Source: Rozella allomycis CSF55 (lineage: Eukaryota). From it: 64,000 bases of DNA. A model generated the notes under the pieces. That model made no database searches. It saw nothing but the letters and a program-made list of their open reading frames with translations, and was not told the origin of the DNA. Positions 27,004 to 54,000 of this stretch are shown here, in pieces (within the stretch, counting starts at the first letter, position 1; each line of letters begins with the position of its first letter). Where the stretch lies: the NCBI GenBank assembly GCA_000442015.1, contig KE560428.1, positions 1 to 64,000 on the forward strand. Reading direction: 5' to 3'. The position numbers and the translations under genes were made by a program.

Positions 27004-27070
27004 AAAATCTGATAAGCCCCCGGGAATTTTCAATCAGTAAAGTGTAAATCAACAGNCAAGAAATCTCTAA

Positions 27071-30000
27071 ATGGAGTCACGAAAGAATGACACTGTGCGA
27101 TGCAAAACTTGCAAGGAGTTATTATGCCATACTTCGGATTGCTACATTTTTAAAGAAAAAGTATCTAAACAAGTTCACTTTGCTCTCGCTACACGGGAAA
27201 ACGTGATCCTCGACCAAGCTACAACAAAAAAGTTCAAAAAGTTTCGAGTGACGTGTAAGGGTAAGGACCCTCACAAGATAGGGACAGTGAATTGTATAGG
27301 GTATCAAGACGCGGAGATTATTTGTTTGAGTTTGAAAGATTTGTGTATCGGAGATGATCAGTTTAAAAAAGTTGACGATTTGGTCAAAGTAGAGCAGTCA
27401 TATGTATGGAAAGTTGTGGAAGATATGGTGATTGACCAAGTTAAGGCAGTTGAATCTTGCTATAGGCGAACAAACTTTCCCAATGGTCATGTCGAATTGC
27501 CGAATGATATAAAGCTTGAATATGAACCATTTGATTACCAAATTGAATGTTTCCATCATATTATGAATGTCCATAACAGTCATAAAAAGAATTCAGTCAT
27601 ATTCCTTGAAACAGGTACAGCTGTTGTTGCATTAAATATAGGACGCGGAAAAACATTGATTTCTGTATTGACGGCAGCGAAAATGCTTGAACTGAATCCT
27701 GATAAACGAATTCTTATGATTGTACCTACCGTTAGTTTGGTGTGTCAGCAAGTGAAGATATTTAAGACATGGCTACCAAATGGGCATGCAATCTGTTGTG
27801 GAATATTTGGGGAAATGTCTCAAACTAAAAAAGCTGCATTTTGTCTTGATGAGAAAATGAGAGTCTTTGTTACTACTGCTGGTTCCTTCAATAATCTGAC
27901 TTTAAAAACATGCACTGAAAATGAGGGCTGTTCGGATGATTGTTTGCATAAATTGTTGCACATAGGGCAATTTTCATTATTGATACTTGACGAATCACAT
28001 CATTGTTTTAAGAATTCCCCTTATAATGATGTCATAAGGGCGTACGATCAATGTAAACCTGAATTTAGGCCAATGATACTTGGCTTAACTGCATCCCCAA
28101 TAGTGGGCAGCATTAGTAATCCAGACGAAAATATCCGTAGCTATCTTGGAAACTTTAATGCTTCTATATTTTATCCATTTTATAGAGATATTCTCAACGA
28201 TTCCGATTGGGCATTCAAAAAGAGATTTAACTTTCAGTTCGAGGAGTTTAAAGTTGATAAAAAGGAGATTTTGTTTAGAGATACTTTGATTAAAATGATT
28301 AAAGATATTTTAGCTAGTATTTCTATGCCATTAAATGATGGAAGGGATTGGAATCTGAATCTTATTCGTGCGGAAATCAATGTCTTGTTGTCACAAGAAG
28401 AATATGGAAACAAACATAAGCTTGTTCGTTATTGTATAAAAATGTTAAACTGTTTGGATAGTATTGCTACTGATTATTTGTGTGAAGTTGTTGAGACTGT
28501 CAAACTTCACCACAAGTTGATTGAAGCAAAAGACAAAATCTTGTGGAATCAATTGAATTTAGTTGCTTCGTTTAAGAATTATCTGGCGCTTTTGGATTCT
28601 TTAGAAGCACATTTGGAAGGTTCTAGGTCAAAAGTAGATTTGTTAAAGGATGTATTGTTAAGGCACACTGACAGGTTATCCAAGACCATAGTGTTTTTCC
28701 AGAGAAGAAAAGATTGCAGAAAGCTAAAAGATATATTAAGCAAAGATCCGGAATTCAGTAAATACAATCCTGAATATGTGATTGGACAAGGCTTTGGAGA
28801 TGGAATGACGAATTTTCAAGTTCAACGATGTTTAAATGATTTTAAAAGCGGTGAATGTAGGCTTTTATTGGCTACTGATATTTTGGAAGAAGGTATCGAT
28901 GTCCCAGAATGCAATGTTGTGATAAGATATGATTTGTCAAAAACTGTGAAATCATTTATTCAAAGTAGAGGGAGAGCCAGGAAAGAAAACTCCAAATTTA
29001 TTGTTTTAACAGAGTCTATTGAACAAACCAAAAAGCTTCTTCAAGACGAGAAGGAAATGTTACGTGCTATTTGTGAAAGGACTATGGAGGATGTAGAAGA
29101 AAGAAAGGATGATTCATCGTTAAGAAGACTGATGTCGCAAGTAGAACGGTTAAAAATAAATGCAATTGAATCAATTAAAAACATATTCGTGGAAATGTGT
29201 TCATCTAAAAGTAAAGAAGAAATATCAAAAATTCTCAAGAAACATATTGGAAGTATTGAATGCAGTTCGCAAAAAGATGGCTTGTATTGGATTGCCTTTG
29301 AATTAAAAGATTCTAAAAGTTGTGATATTTATGAGAATATTCTTCAAATACAGTTTAACGATCCTAAAGTTAAATTGCGTCCGATTGAACCAATAAAGTC
29401 AGCAAAAATTGTGTTGAGCTGTGGAAGTCTTTGTCATGGTTATTTTCAAGATGACAATAACTTTGTGATCTGTGATGAAATTTTAGAAAAATTTTCTCTT
29501 GAAGTGAATTTTGATTCCAGGAACTCCTTTTTAAAATTTGTTGCTGAAGATAAAATTTTGATGAAATGTTCCTTTTTATCTCTAAAGAATGAAATATCAA
29601 TTTCGCAAAGGCCAGATAAAACTTTAGTGATTTTTTCTTTGCATTCCGCTCCTGAATTTTACATTCACGACAGCGACCTGAAACAAACGTATGTGGATAT
29701 GAGATTTAAACCATTGACATTTTGCTTTAAAGTAGACATGGAATCTAGTCATGATTTATGGACTTTTAGAACTATATTTTCTTCGGGAACATTAAAATGC
29801 TATGATAAAATCATATCTTTTCATCAACAAGACAATCAAATAAAGAAAAAGTACCTGAAGCTTGATTTTGAGCGAGAATATTTTCTTTGGTCTCTTTTGA
29901 CTGATAAGTTTTCACATTTAGGTTTAAGCAGAGATCTAATTGAAGTTATTTCCGAAATAGATGATGTTAATGAATTATATATTCCAAGGGATACAACTGT

Positions 30001-33000
30001 TAATACAGTATCGGATCTTATTACTCTAATTAAAACTTCTAAAAAGCTGGTAATTTATTTAATTTGTTTTTATTAGGAAAAAAGGGAACTTAAGAACTAT
30101 CTTTGGGTTAAGCGGATAATAATTACACCATGCAGATTTGTTTTTACTGGTGAAGACGCCATATCGAGCAACAGAGTTTTTCGGTTATTGTCAAATAAAG
30201 TGGATGACTTTATCGACTGCAATATTCGATATGAGGATTTTTCAGAGCATTTAGTTTGGCAAGTCGAACCATTCTTACCAGTTTTAAAAACCATTTTATT
30301 GAAAGGAATAAAAGTTGGGGATAAAGTTTTTAAGTTTTTTGCAGCCTCAAACAGCCAGCAGAGAAATGGTGGTTTATATCTAACCAATCTGGATCAAAAC
30401 AGCTTGTATAGTACTTTAGGGGACTTTTCATCATTACCAAACGCGGCAAAAACAATGAGTAGAATTGGTTTATCTTTGGGTTCTTCTTTGGCGACTATTT
30501 CTATTACATTCAATAAAAATATGATGATTGATGATGTGAAGAATGACAAATACTGCTTTACAGATGGAATCGGAATGATTTCCCCAGATTTAGCTTCTGA
30601 AATTACAAAGTTAATGGGGTTGGAGAAATGTCCTAGCGCTTTTCAAATTAGATACGCTGGATTCAAAGGTGTGTTGGCGGTTAATCCAAATGCCAAGGGA
30701 ATTTTATTTAGACCCAGTATGAAGAAGTTTGAATCAAAATACTCTCACATTGATGTCCTTAATTATTCTAAACCACAGAATCTTACATTAAACAGACAAT
30801 CTATTGCTATCTTATCTCATCTTGGAATTTCTGACGAAACCTTTGAAATGATACACGACGATCATTTGTTCTCTTTAATTGATTCATTTAATGATCCACA
30901 CACAGCACATTGTCTTTTAAAAGAACACTTGAATCATCATTTACTGGATGTTTCTCTGATAAAATCCAAATGTAACTTTTTATTTGATCCTTTTTTTCAA
31001 AAAATGCTTCACAATCTAGTTCTATATCAAATTAACTCTTTAAAGACAAAAGCATGTATTCCGGTAGAAAAAGGTAGAAATATGATTGGAGTTGTGGACG
31101 AATATGATATTCTTGATTATGGTAAAGTTTTTGTTCAATACACTGACGATAATGAAAATTGTGAAATTGTTAAAGGAAAAGTGGTTGTTTATAGGTGTCC
31201 ATTGTCTAGGGCTAGTGATGTTCTTGTATTGGAGGCGATTGATGTTCCTGAATTGCGTCATTTGAAAGATGTTATTGTTTTTCCTCGTAAAGGTGTGCGT
31301 CCGCACCCTCATGAATGTTCAGGTGGAGATTTAGATGGCGATCTATATTCTGTTATATGGGAAGAAAAGTTAATTCCTGCTGAATCTAAAGAATTTGTTG
31401 ATATTGAGTGTCCTGTAATAGAGCAAGTTAGGGAATCAACTAGTATTGAGACTATGTGCCAGAGATTCATTGATATAAAAGCAACGAATAGGCTTGGAAT
31501 AGCATCACATGCACTACAAGCAATTTGGGACCATGAAGGAGTGGAGAGTGAAAAGGCGAGATATTTGGCTGCTTTTATATTTTATCACATTGATGCAGTT
31601 AAAACTAACATTGACGCAAAGTTTAATTCTTATGCAAAGCCTAAAGCATATCCCCATTTCATGGAAACAAAGAACAACTATTACTTGAGCAAAAATATAC
31701 TAGGCAAATTGTATGATAAGTGCAGTGATTTGGTTATGGAAGACGCAGAAACCAACCCCAAGAAATATGATCTATTTATTCTCGAAGGTTATGAGAAATT
31801 CTTAAAAGAAGCAGAAGAACTTTACAAAGAATACGAACTGTCTTTATCTCAAGAACTTGATCGTTATGGCTTGAATGAATATGAATTTCTTTCTGGTGCA
31901 ATTAGGCGCATTCCGGATAAAATTACAGAGAGGACTGAAACATTTGTATTGAAAATCAGAGAAACATCTAAAAAACTGATCGAAGATTACAGAAAGCGAA
32001 TTATTAAAGACCCGGCATTTGTCTCTGCGTGTTACTTTGTTGGGCTAAGAGAAAAATATAAAAGTTTTGCTTGGATCGAATATGAAACTTTAATAAACTC
32101 AATTCAAGTGCAGAATGTTAACTTGACTATGGAAGATAAAATCAATTCATCTCTAAGAAAGTATTTGGATTCCAAAGGTGACTTGCTTGATAAATTGGAT
32201 CAAAGAATTTGCATGGGTGAAAGATTGATCAAAATTATTAATAGTGTTTGTGATAATAGAGTCAAATATTCTGGAAGTACAGCAACTTTGTTGTTTAGTG
32301 ACAACTCTGATATTGATTTGATTGTTTGTGAAGCAGATAAAGATTTAATGATACGAATTTATGAAGAAATTAGGAAAACATACAACGAAGCAGAGTTAAT
32401 TCCACACGAGCATGTGTATACAATCAGAGGCGATTTTTTTGATATAACAAATAATGATAATGGTAAAACTGAAAAACTTTTATGTTTATTCTCAAATCAT
32501 CACGAGCTTTATCCTATTCTCTTCTTTTTTATCGATTGGTTACGTTCTATTGGTTATATCAATTCAACAGAAAGATCTAATGGTTTGTTTTTAACAACTG
32601 AAGCTATTTGGTTTTTTATCGATTCTTTAAAGAAGATTGGATATCTGAACAATTCTTTTCTATTTTATGTAAAAAGCAGTCTTTTTGGTGGCATCAAACC
32701 AAGTGATATTAATTGTGAAGGTAAAGAGATCTATAAATTTTGGGCGTCTCAATTACCAATAGTTAAAGAAAAGTTGAAGAAGTCTAATCTTTCTGCTCAA
32801 TATCTATGGAAATTTCTGAAAAGTTTATCAAGAAAATCTCCCGGAGTGATTGAGCAATCATGGTCAAGTTTTATTCAAATTTGCATTAAAGCGCTGTATC
32901 TTTTCTCTGTTTCTGACGGTGACTTGTTCAGTTTCTTATCTAAATTTCACACCTCTCTATGTTTACCAATAAACGGACTATTAGCCAGTAGGTTCTCGTC

Positions 33001-34399
33001 TCATGAAGAATATCATAAAAAGTACTTGTACGCGAAATTTAATATTCCAAGCACTGTTAACATTGAATTTAAATCCATAAACACAAAATTGTTTCTTATG
33101 GCTAGTGGAGATCCTGTGTCACTTGAGAATATTAAACGTGAAATTGAATTCTTAAATTATTACGCTGTTATCATGCGTAAGAGAAATGAAAACTCTTATT
33201 TTATTGAAAATTCTTCCTTTATTCTTGTAGAAGGCTCGAATGATTTCAAAAACGATCGGCTGGTTTTTGTTCCTCTTCACAATTTTCCTGACATGAAAAA
33301 TATCAGATTGCATCCAGAACATTATGGGTTACCTCAACACTTTATAAGGTTGCTTCAAAGTGTTTGCAAAAAGAATTGGAAAGAGGATGCATTTGATAGG
33401 TTTTTTAAGCGATTCAAAGAGCAGATTGAGATGTTCACTTGTGCAATCAAAAATAAACATGAACATGAAAGATTAATTGGTCCACTAACAGCTTTAATTC
33501 GTGTTGGATATCATTATTTGTTAAAGATTAAGGAAGAGGAATGTCAATTTTTATCAGTTACCGAACTGGAAGATTTATTTCAATTGGGATTAAATCCTCG
33601 TGAGCAGAATGAAGATGAATCTGATGAAGGGTCTGGTGAAAGTGGGTCTGAAGATTTAAGTTTAGAATTTGGGTCTCCTGAGAAATCTGTTGCCAAACTA
33701 AACGAAAATTTTGATGAAGTCAATTCAAAAGTCACACATTCGTTTTTTACTATTGCTAGAAAAGATCCAGTCGAACATTATCTTAGAAAAGGGTTTCAAT
33801 TAACTTCTACAATTAACAAAATTTCAATTACAATTGAATCCGCGGATCGTGATTTTAATATTGACCTTGATGAAAACTATAATTTTGTATGCATTGAACA
33901 CAGGGCTGTTAGGTGGTTTTGTTCCACATTAACTGCGTTTGATGACGCTCAAAAGGAACGTTCTGAAATTCTAAATGACGTTCGATTCTATTTAAATTGT
34001 CAAAATACATGCAAGAACGATCCCTTGGCAAAGAAAATAGCAAACGTTTTTATTTCAAATCCTCCTAAAGATTATGACGACATTTACTCCAGACAAGAAT
34101 TCAAAAAATTGAATGTCTCTGTTCGTAATGTAAGGATTCAATCTCAAAGTACATATGATGCAATTAATGGATCTGTAGTATTGATTAAAACAGGTGTTAG
34201 AAATATCTATTCGGAGGCTCTCAGAAAAGCTATCCCTGACGTAGATCAAAGACCAAGAATAGAAATTGATTTAAGATTTAATAACAAGTGCATTGAAGAT
34301 TTGTATGAAGGAGAAGTTGCGGAAAGTTCTGTGCTTGAAGATTTCGCTAGAAAGTTTTTTGAAAGTGGGCTAGAGTTAATGGAACTTATGAATAAATAA
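27071..34399 (+). CDS. multidomain RNA-dependent RNA polymerase: RLR-CTD-like + DExH helicase + RdRP + Cid1/TUTase-like nucleotidyltransferase + unknown C-terminal domain (~2424 aa; introns 27615-27641 and 30050-30076)
   Basis: Both ORFs are in the same frame, and the separating TAG is the end of a 27-nt GT-AG intron. Motifs LETGRGKT, DESHH, GLTASP, EEGIDVPECN, QSRGRAR; ITPCR..SNRV, FTDGIG, FQIRYAGFKG, CSGGDLDGD; SGS.x9.DID. Confidence 0.9.
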
Positions 34400-49200: not shown

Positions 49201-52200
49201 ATAAGATTATTCTTTGTTGTTGGAGCATTTAAATTGAATTTATCGTTTAATGAAGTATTGAATATCTCTAATGGACCAAGATTGATGTAGAATGGATTGA
49301 TTCCAAATTGATTATCCTTGTATTCAAAATCATTCTTAAAATCCAATTGATAATTTTCTGATAATTTATTTAAAGCTTTTTGTTTGAAATCAGAATCATT
49401 TAAACAATCCAAAAAGATCATAGAACCACCATTAACAAACGCATCTTCTTTATCTAATTTATCAACAGTTGAATTAATAAAAGAACACCATGAAATCAAA
49501 TCTCTTAAAGAATAAACAAATTTAGAATAATTTTCCTTCATCCAAAACACAAAATCAATCATTCTCTTGGCAAACTCTTTAACATTACACTTGTTTTCAA
49601 CTATTAACAATAAATCATTATAATCATCAACAGGAGGAACCCAAATTTCAGTAAATCTATTTCTCAAAGCAGGCGACAATTCCTTCTTTCCAAAATCACC
49701 TCCAGGATTCATCGTAGCTATAAACCTAAATTCATCACTCGCTGTTAAAACTTGTCCATTTTCTCTTTCAGGAATTGTCAATATTCTAGCTGATTCTAAA
49801 ACTGAATTTAATCTCTCCAACACTGAATCTTCAGCCAATGATATTTCATCCATTAAAAATATATCACCGTTAACCATTGATGAAACTAATGGACCATCAA
49901 TCCATTCAAACAGTTGTGATTTTGTGTTGTCTCTACATGGACGCTGTGAACCAAGAAAATCTGATGATTCTGTGTGTTGATGGCAATTTAATATCAACAA
50001 ATTTTGTTTAAAATATTCTGCTATCCATTGACAAAGTGATGTCTTTCCTATCCCTGTTGCTCCAATCAATAACACTGGCTCTTTATTCAATAATGCATTA
50101 TAAACCAAAATTAACAATCTTTTCATTGCACTAGTAAATATTAAATTGGAATTTGTATCAATCTCTGGATATGAAATTGACTTTACATCAATAACTGATG
50201 GAGAACCATTAGACACTGACTGTTTAGACTTTTTCTCATTATTCTCCACACTCATTTTACCCTGCTTACTCTCTTTATCACTAATTCGAAGATCATATAA
50301 GTCATCTTCATTAATCTCCACTTTGATAACCTGCTCCAAAACCTTCTTCACAATACCCTTCTCATCAACATCTCTAATCCTCTCCGCCAACAACATATAC
50401 CCAATCTCAGCCAACTCTTGATAAGAATTTGGATTCCTCTCAGCCCACTTGAACAAATCTCTAAGCGTAATAAACCCATGCTTTCCAGAAAATATTTTAG
50501 ATTTCGGTCTCTTATCAATCAACTCTTGATACACCAATACCATCTTTTTGCAATAAGATGGCGCTACAATACACTTTTTAGATAAAATCTCTTCCATTTC
50601 GTCACTGGGAATGTTGTCGAAATGCAATTCTAAGAATCTGTTTCTGAATGCCTTTGATAATGTTTTTCTGCCGCCGTACATGCCTGGTGGATTCTGGGTG
50701 GCAAATAAAATGAAATTGGGATGCGCTTTGATTGTTTCTTGGGTCTCTGGAAGAAATATTTCTCTGTTATCGTCTAACAGTCTATTAAGGGATTCTAAAA
50801 CTTCTGTGGGGGCTAAATTCAATTCATCCAATACTATCCAATACCCATTCTTCACTGCTTCAACTAGAATACCTTGCTTATAAACCAACTTTCCAGTAGA
50901 ATCATTAACATAAGATCCAAAATACTCTTGTATGTCTGTATGTTCATGATTATTTATTCTAACAAACTTGTTTCCTGTTAAATCTGCTAAATACTTTATT
51001 ATACTACTTTTTCCCACTGATGTTGGCCCTTGTATTAAAATTGGATACTTTTTGCACTGAACAGCCCTTGCTAAATTCTTTAAATTATTCTTGACACTTC
51101 TAGTTAAAATAAATGAATTGTTCTCTTCTTGAATCTCATAGTTTCCTTTATCAATTAAATATCCTTCTATTAAACATTTAGATTCATCATCATTCTTTAC
51201 AATATTACATTGACTAATATTTCTCTTTAATAGAATTGTAGAGTTTATTATTTCATTCATTATTTTAAAAGATTCTTCATTCAATTGAGTTGTAAAAGAA
51301 ACACAAATTCCTTCATAAACACATTTTAAAATTGGATAGTTTTTATTAACAGAAATAGCAAATGATAATGCTCTAGTTAAAGTTCTCATACTAAAATGTG
51401 GCTTCTTGTTATCTGTATCATACAAATTAGATGCCTTTTTAACTCTATAATAGAATTCAACAATAGATCCAAGCAACCATTGCTCATAATGTCCAAATTT
51501 ATTCAAATATTTTCCAACTATAATCTCTAAATCTTTCTTATAACAATCAATTTCATCAACAAATATTTCTGTAAACTTGCTTCTCAATGCTGGTGGCAAA
51601 TCCTTCTTGCCAATATCATTAGATGGATTCATACACGCAAACAATCTAAAATTCTCATTCCTTGGAATAGGCTCAACATCTCCCCTTTCTGTTAATGTTA
51701 TTGATCCTTTATTATCTTGCAACAATCCTGACAACACTTGAAGAGTTTCCGAAGATGCTAAATTCACTTCATCCAATAACACCCACTGCCCCTGTCTAAT
51801 CGCTTTCAACAACGCTCCTTCAACAAATCCAAACAACAATGCATTCTTTTTCATTTGAGAACTTTGAATCTGAAACTTTTTACATTTCTCATTCAATTTA
51901 ATCCATTCACTCAACAACTCACTGCCATCACCTGATAACTTTTTTATCGCCATTTCACTTGAATGTCTAATCAGAGTTATAAATCTATCCCATTTCTGTT
52001 TAATAAATGCTTTTCTAACATTATCCAAATACTCTTCATTCTTTGACTTTGAAAACGTTGCAATAAACAAACTATCAAATTCTTCTTTCAAGGGAAGTGC
52101 TAAATGACTAGCTGGAATTGGTTTGTATCCTCCCAACAAATCTGAAGCTTCTGACTGCTGACTCAAATTAATAACACTATCAACGACGCTAACTGCTGAA

Positions 52201-54000
52201 CACTCGTCGTCTTTCCTGTTCCAGTAGATCCAACCAACAAAACAGANCTACCAACAAAACAGACTCATTCATTTTAACACAAGTGCTAATCTTTTCCAAT
52301 ATATTCAATGACAATTTAGTATATGCAAACAATTGTTCATTCATCCCACTCCTCACTACATCCAATACACTCCTTCCAAATTTAACATTATTGCTATTAA
52401 TCTCATATTTTGGCTGATAAACATCCAACCCATACTTTATCGCTTCTTCATTCATTTCCATTATCTCTCCAATCTTAAACATAAATTCTCTTCTATCATC
52501 CATATTCGATATAAATCCTCCAAAACAATCCAAACTCTCTAAAATCATTTCAGTCTCATGAATCCTTCCTTGTCCCAACTCAAACAATCTTCCCGTCCAC
52601 TTCAACACATCATTAAACGTCAACACTCGCTTATTAAACACTCTCTCCTCTCCACAAATAAAATCCTTCACTTTCAATATCACATCCATCAATCCATCCT
52701 CAAAAGGATACTTTGTCTTTATTATCATCGTTGATTCCTCCTCACTCATCCCCTTCACCTGCACGCTAAAACACATCCTTCTTCCAATCAGAGACTCAAA
52801 TATCGTATTCTTCAAACTTCTGGCAGTCACAAACAATCTAAAATTCTCATGCGCCGATATTCTCTCTCCTCTTGATGGTATAAACACTTCGTTAGATCTA
52901 AACAACGATTGCAACATTGATATCGTATCCATATTCACTAGATCAACATCTTCAATCAATAACCACTTTCCACTACTAACAGCAACAGATATCACACCAG
53001 GCTGCCACTTGAACTCGCCCGGAATATCCGTACACACATACGATCCCAACAGCGCCTTTGAATCAGTCTGTTCTCCCATGTGTATTCTAAGTAACGATTG
53101 ACCATTTCTCTTGGCTAAATGTTGCACAAGTGTAGTCTTTCCACTACCTGCTGGCCCTTCCAACAAAATAGCCTTGTTCGCCATCAATCCTTTTTCCATC
53201 TCACTTATTCTACTCTTCACACTCTCAGTCATTAAAATATCACTACTCGTTTCTTCTTTGACACTCTTTTCAAATATTATCCTGGGAATATCCTCTGGAA
53301 CACTGTCGATTTCAACAACTCTCTTCTTGATTCCACAAATCCAATCATGCTCATCCAAACAATACCTCTCTTCAAACTGTTTCTCAACAACACTCCTTTC
53401 TTCCAACGACAATGCATACACAACATCCAATATTCTAAAAGCCACAAACCTCACAAACTCATTTTCACAATTCTTCAACTCGAAAACATTACTCCAATTT
53501 TCACCAATTCTCTTCCTCCTAAAAATACTCAACATCCTATAAAGCCCATACAAATGCACAGCAAAACACTCCACATTCTCATACTCTCCAATCATTCCAA
53601 CCAACACATCCAAATTCTTCTCAAACCACATCCCAACAACCCCTCTAACTCTAACCTCAATCTCGCAAATCTGAGCAAACGCAAACAACACCCTACTCTC
53701 ATCACTCAACTCTTCATAAGCACGCTCACAAACATCAAATATATCGCAAATGATCACATCACGCCCCTTGCTCAATGCCGGAAGCTTCCGTTTTTCTCTC
53801 ACAAACTCATTCTTATCAAAAGTAATAAGATGCTCCACAAGATCAGGCAATATCTCACGAAATATCATCGCCAAAGATATACTCTTCTCGGGACGCAAAA
53901 GCTCGCCAGATATCACACTCACAAATTCTTCATATGTTTTCAAAACCGGTAAAGAGCCGTATCTTTGGTTGAAGATGTATATGCATTTGGAAAGATCCAT
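40230..54000 (-). CDS. MDN1: midasin (Rea1/MDN1) AAA-ATPase, multi-exon with assembly breaks
   Basis: Six AAA modules (GPAGSGKT, GPTSVGKS, GATGIGKT, GNPGVGKT, GPSMSGKT), long linker, D/E-rich region, MIDAS LRLILEPT..GDYKTGKRLNMRKII..DDSLSM. Confidence 0.97.

Follow-up and report, generated by a model that had tools for sequence, protein, structure and literature searches.

The C-terminal domain (CTD) of RIG-I-like receptors (RLRs) is what RIG-I, MDA5 and LGP2 use to read RNA ends, where it caps the end and closes the helicase ring. Helicases also occur together with RNA-dependent RNA polymerases (RdRPs), as Caenorhabditis elegans DRH-3 acts with the RdRPs RRF-1/EGO-1, while the RNA-dependent RNA polymerase complex (RDRC) of Schizosaccharomyces pombe consists of Rdp1, Hrr1 and Cid12, and that of Tetrahymena of Rdr1 together with Rdn nucleotidyltransferases (NTases). 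In Drosophila Dicer-2, the ring-closing part is played by the DUF283 domain, according to PMC10328071, and the RIG-I regulatory domain was detectable in animals only, as stated by Lupas et al. (2015; PMC4287342). Proteins in which a helicase and an RdRP are fused have already been described, with DEAD-box, Helicase_C and RdRP as the domains given (Martens 2002, cited in Bollmann et al., 2016; PMC4791657), and the terms zinc, RIG-I and N-terminal are absent from the latter paper. Here we describe a gene of this kind from Rozella allomycis CSF55, which lies on the plus strand at 27071-34399 of a 64,000-nucleotide (nt) stretch (contig KE560428.1, positions 1 to 64,000, assembly GCA_000442015.1; hereafter the window), and which encodes, in this order along the chain, an N-terminal module (N-module) predicted to be of the RLR-CTD type, a Dicer/RLR-family helicase, an RdRP and an NTase.

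The original prediction, made from the DNA alone, proposed a RIG-I-CTD-like zinc module at 27092-27355 (+), placed ahead of the helicase, and all of the residue strings that it quoted are present in the translation of this segment (TVRCKTCKELLCHTSDCYIFKEKVSKQVHFALATRENVILDQATTKKFKKFRVTCKGKDPHKIGTVNCIGYQDAEIICLSLKDLCIGD). The segment corresponds to residues 8-95 of the open reading frame (ORF) 27071-30076 and spans only the β-tent core of the module, which as a whole covers residues 8-128 (27092..27454, +) on the basis of a family hidden Markov model (HMM), hhalign, AlphaFold2 (AF2) and VIA. The position N-terminal to the helicase is borne out as well, with the ResIII/DEAD match starting at residue 151. 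The first zinc knuckle, Cys11-x2-Cys14 (27101..27112, +), is invariant in 26 of 26 aligned modules, and its columns are those of the first CxxC of RLR CTDs. The second knuckle, C62-K-G-K-D66-P-H68-K-I-G71 (27254..27283, +), is degenerate, with Cys62 and Gly71 in conserved columns of what is C-x2-C-x3-[VI]-G in the family consensus. Further downstream, Trp113 (27407..27409, +) belongs to a conserved [KR]-W motif, the column of which holds Trp in 92% of the family and in 100% of RLR CTDs.

When the ORF was compared by phmmer with 1.84 billion representative sequences, 6,127 matches were obtained at E <= 0.001, including proteins of Dictyostelium discoideum, Plasmopara, Pythium and Hydra, and 185 proteins were retained for comparison. 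The module was detected in 53 of the 185, drawn from many phyla. Among the 34 retained proteins longer than 1,900 aa, 25 carry it at residues ~1-150, ahead of helicase motif I, and the remaining nine comprise models truncated at the N-terminus, Dicer-like proteins and a Dictyostelium protein containing a long insert. Six of seven shorter module-bearing proteins that were scanned turned out to be truncated helicase-RdRP models, and the module is absent from all 20 retained proteins that contain an RNase III motif. Module-bearing helicase-RdRP fusions are present in Pythium oligandrum, Plasmopara halstedii, Hydra vulgaris, the sponge Oopsacas minuta, the amoebozoans Cavostelium and Endostelium, the liverwort Riccia sorocarpa, Mallomonas annulata and Prorocentrum/Polarella, as well as in a eukprot record that bears the label Mesen1. 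The module leads helicase-RdRP proteins in Opisthokonta, Amoebozoa, stramenopiles, dinoflagellates and streptophytes. The family is thereby extended to Rozella, a sponge, a liverwort, a synurophyte and dinoflagellates. Its consensus reads C-x2-C ... F-[FY] ... V-H-[LF] ... C-x2-C-x3-[VI]-G ... G-P ... K-W, and in the 26-row alignment the columns of C62, of the fourth Cys, of G71 and of W113 are at least 90% conserved, in addition to the invariant C11 and C14. In one Mallomonas annulata protein (P0053), a dsRNA-binding motif (dsrm, 24.8 bits) occupies residues 12-81, before the N-module, an arrangement consistent with an RNA-related role for the N-terminal region.

The Rozella module is recognized by this family without having contributed to its profile. 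An HMM built from 24 other eukaryotic modules, from which both Rozella rows were excluded, gives 36.8 bits for the Rozella module and 32.1 bits for that of a second Rozella copy (P0007), while the best of 2000 shuffled sequences obtains 12.4 bits. A second HMM, built from nine vertebrate LGP2/MDA5 CTDs, scores the Rozella N-terminus at 10.2 bits and P0007 at 15.9 bits, and none of 2000 composition-preserving shuffles exceeds 8.0 bits. A chance match of a Cys-rich N-terminus that forms no real domain is nevertheless what the single-sequence searches might suggest, as the Rozella segment alone is too weak a query: its best Pfam match has an E of 0.03-0.05, phmmer against PDB sequences finds a RIG-I CTD at E 1.3 over 27 residues, and a protein-atlas search returned no usable match. 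However, none of the 2000 shuffles reaches the real score with either HMM, the module recurs in 53 of the 185 retained proteins, and its Hydra counterpart is modelled with a pLDDT of 95.7. Because of the conservation across the family, we regard the chance explanation as already refuted and give it almost no weight.

The relationship to RLR CTDs is apparent from several comparisons. RIG-I_C-RD is the top Pfam match of the Rozella segment, albeit sub-threshold (14.2-15.0 bits, E 0.03-0.05, gathering score 25.6), whereas Yippee-Mis18 (PF03226) produces no match to the same segment at E <= 1; the best RIG-I_C-RD score seen among the relatives belongs to P0037 (23.1 bits, E 8.8e-5, residues 4-97). 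Alignment by hhalign of the 26-row family with the nine LGP2/MDA5 CTDs yields a probability of 91% and an E of 1e-6 over 106 columns. In the profile-profile alignment, the family and the RLR CTDs have common columns for the four Cys, the Gly and the K-W. The family His (VH[LF], 81%) lies within one column of the invariant RLR-CTD His, but the register shifts by one between alignments, and this His is not counted among the shared positions. A PDB sequence search with the family profile retrieves MDA5 (E 0.0056, profile positions 5-107), the duck RIG-I CTD (E 0.03, positions 4-123), the DRH-3 CTD (E 0.046) and LGP2 (E 0.1), with the RLR matches in register across the whole domain. The family HMM also matches directly the C-terminal CTDs of two RLR-type proteins, P0132 (35 bits) and P0105 (18 bits); both proteins are LGP2-sized, at ~700 aa, and their CTDs may be the RLR CTDs that are closest to the N-module.

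Several results weigh against this relationship and have to be considered together. Rozella, at 15.0 bits, falls short of the gathering score of Pfam PF11648 RIG-I_C-RD (25.6 bits), and whole-protein Pfam scans of the Pythium, Hydra and Riccia members do not report RIG-I_C-RD at E <= 0.01. In the profile-profile alignment, the conserved basic columns of the family and of the RLR CTDs do not coincide, except for the K of K-W. Moreover, the best PDB sequence match of the family profile is not an RLR but Mis18 (E 0.0018), and modules scanned singly match Yippee-Mis18 in 14 of 26 cases (best 6e-5) compared with 11 of 26 for RIG-I_C-RD (best 1.7e-5, counted at E <= 1). With the β-tent families lying near each other in sequence space, according to Lupas et al. 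(2015; PMC4287342), the module could be a generic β-tent of the Yippee/Mis18/CULT kind, serving in protein contacts, oligomerization or the binding of a small ligand, and its likeness to RLR CTDs would then reflect nothing beyond the shared superfamily. However, the Mis18 match is limited to 39 columns around the second knuckle, while RLR CTDs align over 100-120 positions; both Mis18 knuckles are matched by a single knuckle of the query, and an MsrB match of the family profile (E 0.02) is likewise located around one knuckle only. The domain is, in addition, always joined to a duplex-RNA helicase, and we know of no Yippee/Mis18, CULT, MsrB/SelR, Mss4 or TCTP domain that is joined to a helicase.

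Predicted structures bear on the same choice. AF2, run with a family alignment that contained no RLR sequences, gave a model of the Rozella module with a pLDDT of 78.3 and a pTM of 0.70, and the Hydra module was modelled with the pLDDT mentioned above; both models show a β-tent fold with the C-terminal extension specific to RLR CTDs. When the Rozella model was searched by VIA against 48,161 chains, RLR CTDs took each of the top nine places (Z 8.6-10.6, over 98-110 aligned residues that span 1-130 of the model), followed by MsrB1 (7.6), Mis18 (7.4 and 7.3), CULT (6.8), YPEL5 (6.4), Mss4 (5.5) and TCTP (4.5). The Hydra model behaves in the same way, with nine RLR CTDs at Z 8.7-10.6, then MsrB1 at 7.1 and Mis18 at 6.8, and across the two models MsrB, Mis18, CULT and Yippee obtain Z 5.2-7.6. 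The nine RLR CTDs hence stand 1-3 Z units above every other β-tent in both models, and they alone match the C-terminal extension beyond residue ~96, whereas the other β-tents align only with model residues ~5-96. Foldseek with the Rozella model also found RLR CTDs, which make up all of the matches listed (40 rows, ranks 1-50; best E 2.2e-4). A further point against the RLR-CTD assignment is that AF2, as a method trained on the PDB, may favour the best-represented β-tent subtype. On balance, the fold comparison between RLR CTDs and Yippee/Mis18/CULT domains, which the original prediction had proposed as a check, comes out on the side of the RLR CTDs, which match better and over the full length, and we consider a generic β-tent unlikely. 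The models, together with the profile alignments and the HMM scores relative to shuffles, argue that residues 8-128 form a β-tent zinc-knuckle domain whose subtype is that of the CTD of RIG-I, MDA5, LGP2 and DRH-1/3, as the original prediction had supposed from a pattern recognized by eye.

The same prediction had noticed that the fourth Cys is missing, and the profile-profile alignment agrees: the column that holds Cys in 92% of the family and in 100% of RLR CTDs is occupied by Asp66 in Rozella, with His68 two residues beyond. The four-Cys zinc site of the RLR CTD is therefore incomplete in the Rozella copy, while the family at large keeps all four (>=90% conserved). Judged from its sequence, the Rozella module is a degenerate member of the family, in which the fourth zinc ligand would have to be Asp66 or His68; both His and Asp can serve as zinc ligands.

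The reading of the second knuckle depends on a 39-nt segment (27261..27299, +; gtaag...tatag), which the NCBI model P0006 treats as an intron and removes but which is read here as coding (KDPHKIGTVNCIG). It aligns with the second knuckle of the family and its xxx[VI]G. With the 39 nt, the family HMM scores the Rozella module at the 36.8 bits given above, compared with 21.8 bits without them, in which case the alignment ends at Cys62. P0007 retains the segment with an in-frame two-residue difference (CKGKDPHKIG vs CKQGHKIG). Because 15 bits are lost upon splicing and the segment is kept in P0007, 27261-27299 is taken to be coding. The NCBI splice, which removes the second knuckle at that cost, was rejected as the main form.

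Alternatively, the module could be a decaying remnant, homologous to the other modules but devoid of zinc binding or function, in a protein whose helicase, RdRP and NTase still work. The fourth Cys is gone in both Rozella copies, which also differ in the spacing of the knuckle; the score of 36.8 bits compares with 72-125 bits for other members, although the latter were scored by an HMM that includes them and the values are not strictly comparable; the Rozella helicase has the longest branch in the tree described below (1.72); and the AF2 model reaches a rounded pLDDT of 78 compared with 96 for Hydra. On the other hand, C11, C14, H36, C62, G71 and W113 are all retained, the frame is open, only in-frame changes separate the two copies, and a His or an Asp could complete the zinc site. 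A remnant is thus improbable in our view, slightly more so than the generic β-tent, and a retained module of the RLR-CTD type is preferred.

The module is part of a single long gene. The whole coding region, 27071..34399 (+), comprises the N-module, helicase, RdRP, NTase and a C-terminal region in about 2,424 codons once two 27-nt introns are taken out (about 2,420 aa). It is made up of the helicase ORF (27071-30076, +; 1001 codons) and the RdRP ORF (30188-34399, +), which share one frame, and the only stop between them is a single TAG, with which a 27-nt GT..AG element ends (30050..30076, +; gtaat...attag). P0006 is spliced exactly there, with KKL joined to EKRELKNY across the junction. The other 27-nt intron (27615..27641, +; gtaca...atatag) lies inside helicase motif I, where its excision converts ETG-TAVVALNIG-RGKT into ETGRGKT, in line with the uninterrupted xTGxGKT of the homologues. 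In relatives of 2,200-3,400 aa, helicase, RdRP and NTase occur together in one chain. The shared frame, the location of the stop inside a 27-nt intron and these one-chain relatives together indicate that 27071-34399 is one gene, the small-intron splices being predicted from sequence logic and homology. An ambiguous base, N, lies shortly before the start codon, at 27057.

The ORF 27071-30076 is 98% identical to the R. allomycis CSF55 protein P0006 over 99% of its length, while P0007, the second Rozella copy of the gene product, is 96-97% identical; no second copy of the gene was found within the 64-kb window. The two public models are mutually inconsistent. In P0006, the 39-nt and 27-nt elements are both spliced out and the model ends soon after the RdRP region begins, whereas in P0007 both elements are retained and the entire Helicase_C region is missing, and in neither is the helicase joined to the full RdRP and NTase. 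The present reading would correct the split between helicase and RdRP, the 39 coding nt lost in one model and the P-loop 27-nt intron left in the other. The Rozella genome makes use of mini-introns: the helicase-RdRP gene has two of exactly 27 nt (GTA...[AT]TAG), one of them in-frame in the P-loop, and in-frame mini-introns of this kind are readily overlooked or over-called by gene finders.

The catalytic part of the protein appears to be intact. The helicase core (27521..28978, +) is of the Dicer/RLR family of duplex-RNA-activated ATPases, with DESH and QSRGRAR motifs and a ~175-residue insertion between the two lobes; it is matched by Pfam ResIII (5.8e-20) and DEAD (2.6e-15), both within residues 151-344, and by Helicase_C (1.3e-22, residues 521-636), and its closest named relatives are LGP2/DHX58 and Dicer-like proteins. 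The eukaryotic RdRP domain (30200..31720, +; Pfam PF05183, E 5e-129, 432 bits) carries the catalytic motif GGDLDGD and stands in the same frame as the helicase, so that the coupling of the helicase to an RdRP instead of CARDs was predicted correctly. Downstream of it, a Pol-beta-type NTase core (GS...DIDLIV; 32192..32347, +) is matched weakly by Pfam MTPAP-like_central (17.6 bits, E 0.004, gathering score 27), which is above threshold in relatives from Hydra (41.2 bits) and Riccia (50.2 bits). The relatives P0005, P0035, P0049 and P0076 likewise have a Pol-beta-type (MTPAP/Cid-like) NTase after the RdRP. The catalytic motifs GRGKT (after splicing), DESH, QSRGRAR, DLDGD and GS..DID are all intact in Rozella.

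The phylogenetic position of the helicase was addressed with two trees, a 52-row tree under LG+C20, obtained by quick search and rooted with archaeal Hef-type helicases as outgroup, and a 31-row tree under LG+G4, a weaker model for long branches, which was also used for the AU tests. In the first tree, RLRs (99), Dicers (95) and 20 of 21 fusion helicases (98) each form a clade, and the RLR clade excludes all fusion helicases. The Rozella helicase, the longest terminal branch, falls loosely within the Dicer+fusion group, next to but not inside the 20-member fusion clade. The grouping of fusion helicases with Dicers has an SH-aLRT of 91 (C20, 52 rows) and of 97 (LG+G4, 31 rows). The AU tests do not reject a clade that unites all fusion helicases with that of Rozella (p-AU 0.224), nor a fusion+RLR clade (p-AU 0.147), while Rozella+RLR is borderline rejected (p-AU 0.044). 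On these grounds, an RLR identity of the helicase was rejected, with the last of them borderline. The trees agree with Bollmann et al. (2016; PMC4791657), in which helicases linked to RDRs from Dictyostelium, oomycetes, Hydra and Nematostella form one clade apart from Dicer helicases. Since the helicase lies outside the RLR clade, the protein is not the permuted RLR that had been proposed originally; what remains of that proposal is a CTD-type module at the N-terminus of a Dicer/RLR-family helicase, whereas the helicase itself probably belongs to the RdRP-fusion family. The original prediction did not include the occurrence of the module throughout this family of eukaryotic proteins, the NTase behind the RdRP or the loss of part of the module in the public gene model. 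The sequence comparisons suggest that this helicase represents a third, old branch of the Dicer/RLR family, with an RLR-CTD-type module at its N-terminus.

By analogy with the RLRs, the N-module probably acts as an RNA-end-binding cap within the helicase-RdRP-NTase chain. In this role it would grip an RNA duplex or template at its terminus, possibly at the 5'-triphosphate end of an RdRP product, and together with the helicase it could close a ring on the RNA. The RNA thus chosen would then be acted upon by the enzymes of the chain, namely helicase, polymerase and tailing enzyme. The protein would then be an all-in-one RdRP complex, to which C. elegans DRH-3, working with RRF-1/EGO-1 in trans, seems to be the closest functional parallel. 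Two points tell against such a role. The fourth Cys is lost in Rozella, hence zinc binding may be poor, and the helicase is not an RLR orthologue, hence the cooperation between CTD and helicase is not simply transferable from RLRs.

A broader and much more tentative scenario is that a helicase and an RLR-CTD-type end sensor were paired in early eukaryotes within an RdRP machine and were later inherited or re-shuffled by animal RLRs and DRH-1/3; we consider this possible but doubtful. If it were true, the pairing would predate animals, and its original task would have been the recognition of RdRP templates or of 5'-triphosphate products, so that this type of sensor would be far older than animals. 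Both forms, RLRs and module-headed fusions, are still present in sponges and cnidarians. An end-binding N-module would also offer a testable idea for the way in which the RdRPs of eukaryotes select or hold RNA, for which Dictyostelium RrpA-C, Nematostella and Hydra are tractable systems. While the helicase-RdRP fusion is already known, we found no report of an RLR-CTD-type domain in a permuted position across this pan-eukaryotic RdRP family, and full-text searches of the literature, together with passages of PMC3661229, PMC4791657, PMC4287342, PMC12768352 and PMC10328071, yielded no description of a RIG-I-like, Yippee-like or zinc module at the N-terminus of helicase-RdRP proteins.

Further ORFs in the window code for midasin, an SNF2 ATPase and a P450, which identifies it as eukaryotic nuclear DNA. 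The midasin (MDN1) gene is spread over several long ORFs on the minus strand (40230-54000) and coincides with a strongly negative plus-strand GC skew (-0.2 to -0.55) at 42-54 kb. Its ORFs are separated at about 52166-52189 by about 23 nt with GT..AG ends, and at 44560-44640 (- strand) the gene contains two tandem ~32-nt intron-like units (gtaatgttgggga...gatttca[g/n]) with an N at the junction, which may reflect either a misassembly or the duplication of a mini-intron.

Compared with the RLR CTD (PF11648), the Rozella module and its family share the β-tent with a C-terminal extension, two CxxC knuckles, an xxx[VW]G after the second of them and the K-W in common columns, and like the RLR CTD the module is joined to a helicase of the Dicer/RLR family. 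In contrast to the RLR CTD, which is located C-terminal to the helicase after the pincer, the module precedes Hel1 (residues 8-128, with the helicase starting at ~151), and the Rozella copy stays under the Pfam gathering score and has no fourth Cys. The chain as a whole differs from RLRs by containing an RdRP and an NTase but no CARDs, and by a helicase partner from outside the RLR clade. Other β-tents (Yippee/Mis18, CULT of cereblon, MsrB/SelR, Mss4 and TCTP) share the core β-tent with a zinc site between two hairpins, yet they reach only Z 4.3-7.6, cover core residues ~5-96 and give sub-threshold sequence matches. DRH-3 combines an RLR-type helicase with a CTD that was solved with 5'-ppp RNA (6m6r and 6m6s, according to the PDB titles) and is among the structural matches of the module. 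The RdRP complexes of S. pombe, Tetrahymena and C. elegans bring together the same activities, helicase, RdRP and non-templated NTase, on separate polypeptides, whereas in Rozella they reside in one chain. The family to which the Rozella gene belongs is that of the helicase-RdRP fusions, including Dictyostelium RrpA/B/C, the Peronosporomycete RDR and the RdRPs of Hydra and Nematostella, with which it shares the RdRP, the domain order and the presence of helicase and RdRP in one frame, and to the description of which the N-module and the NTase are added here.

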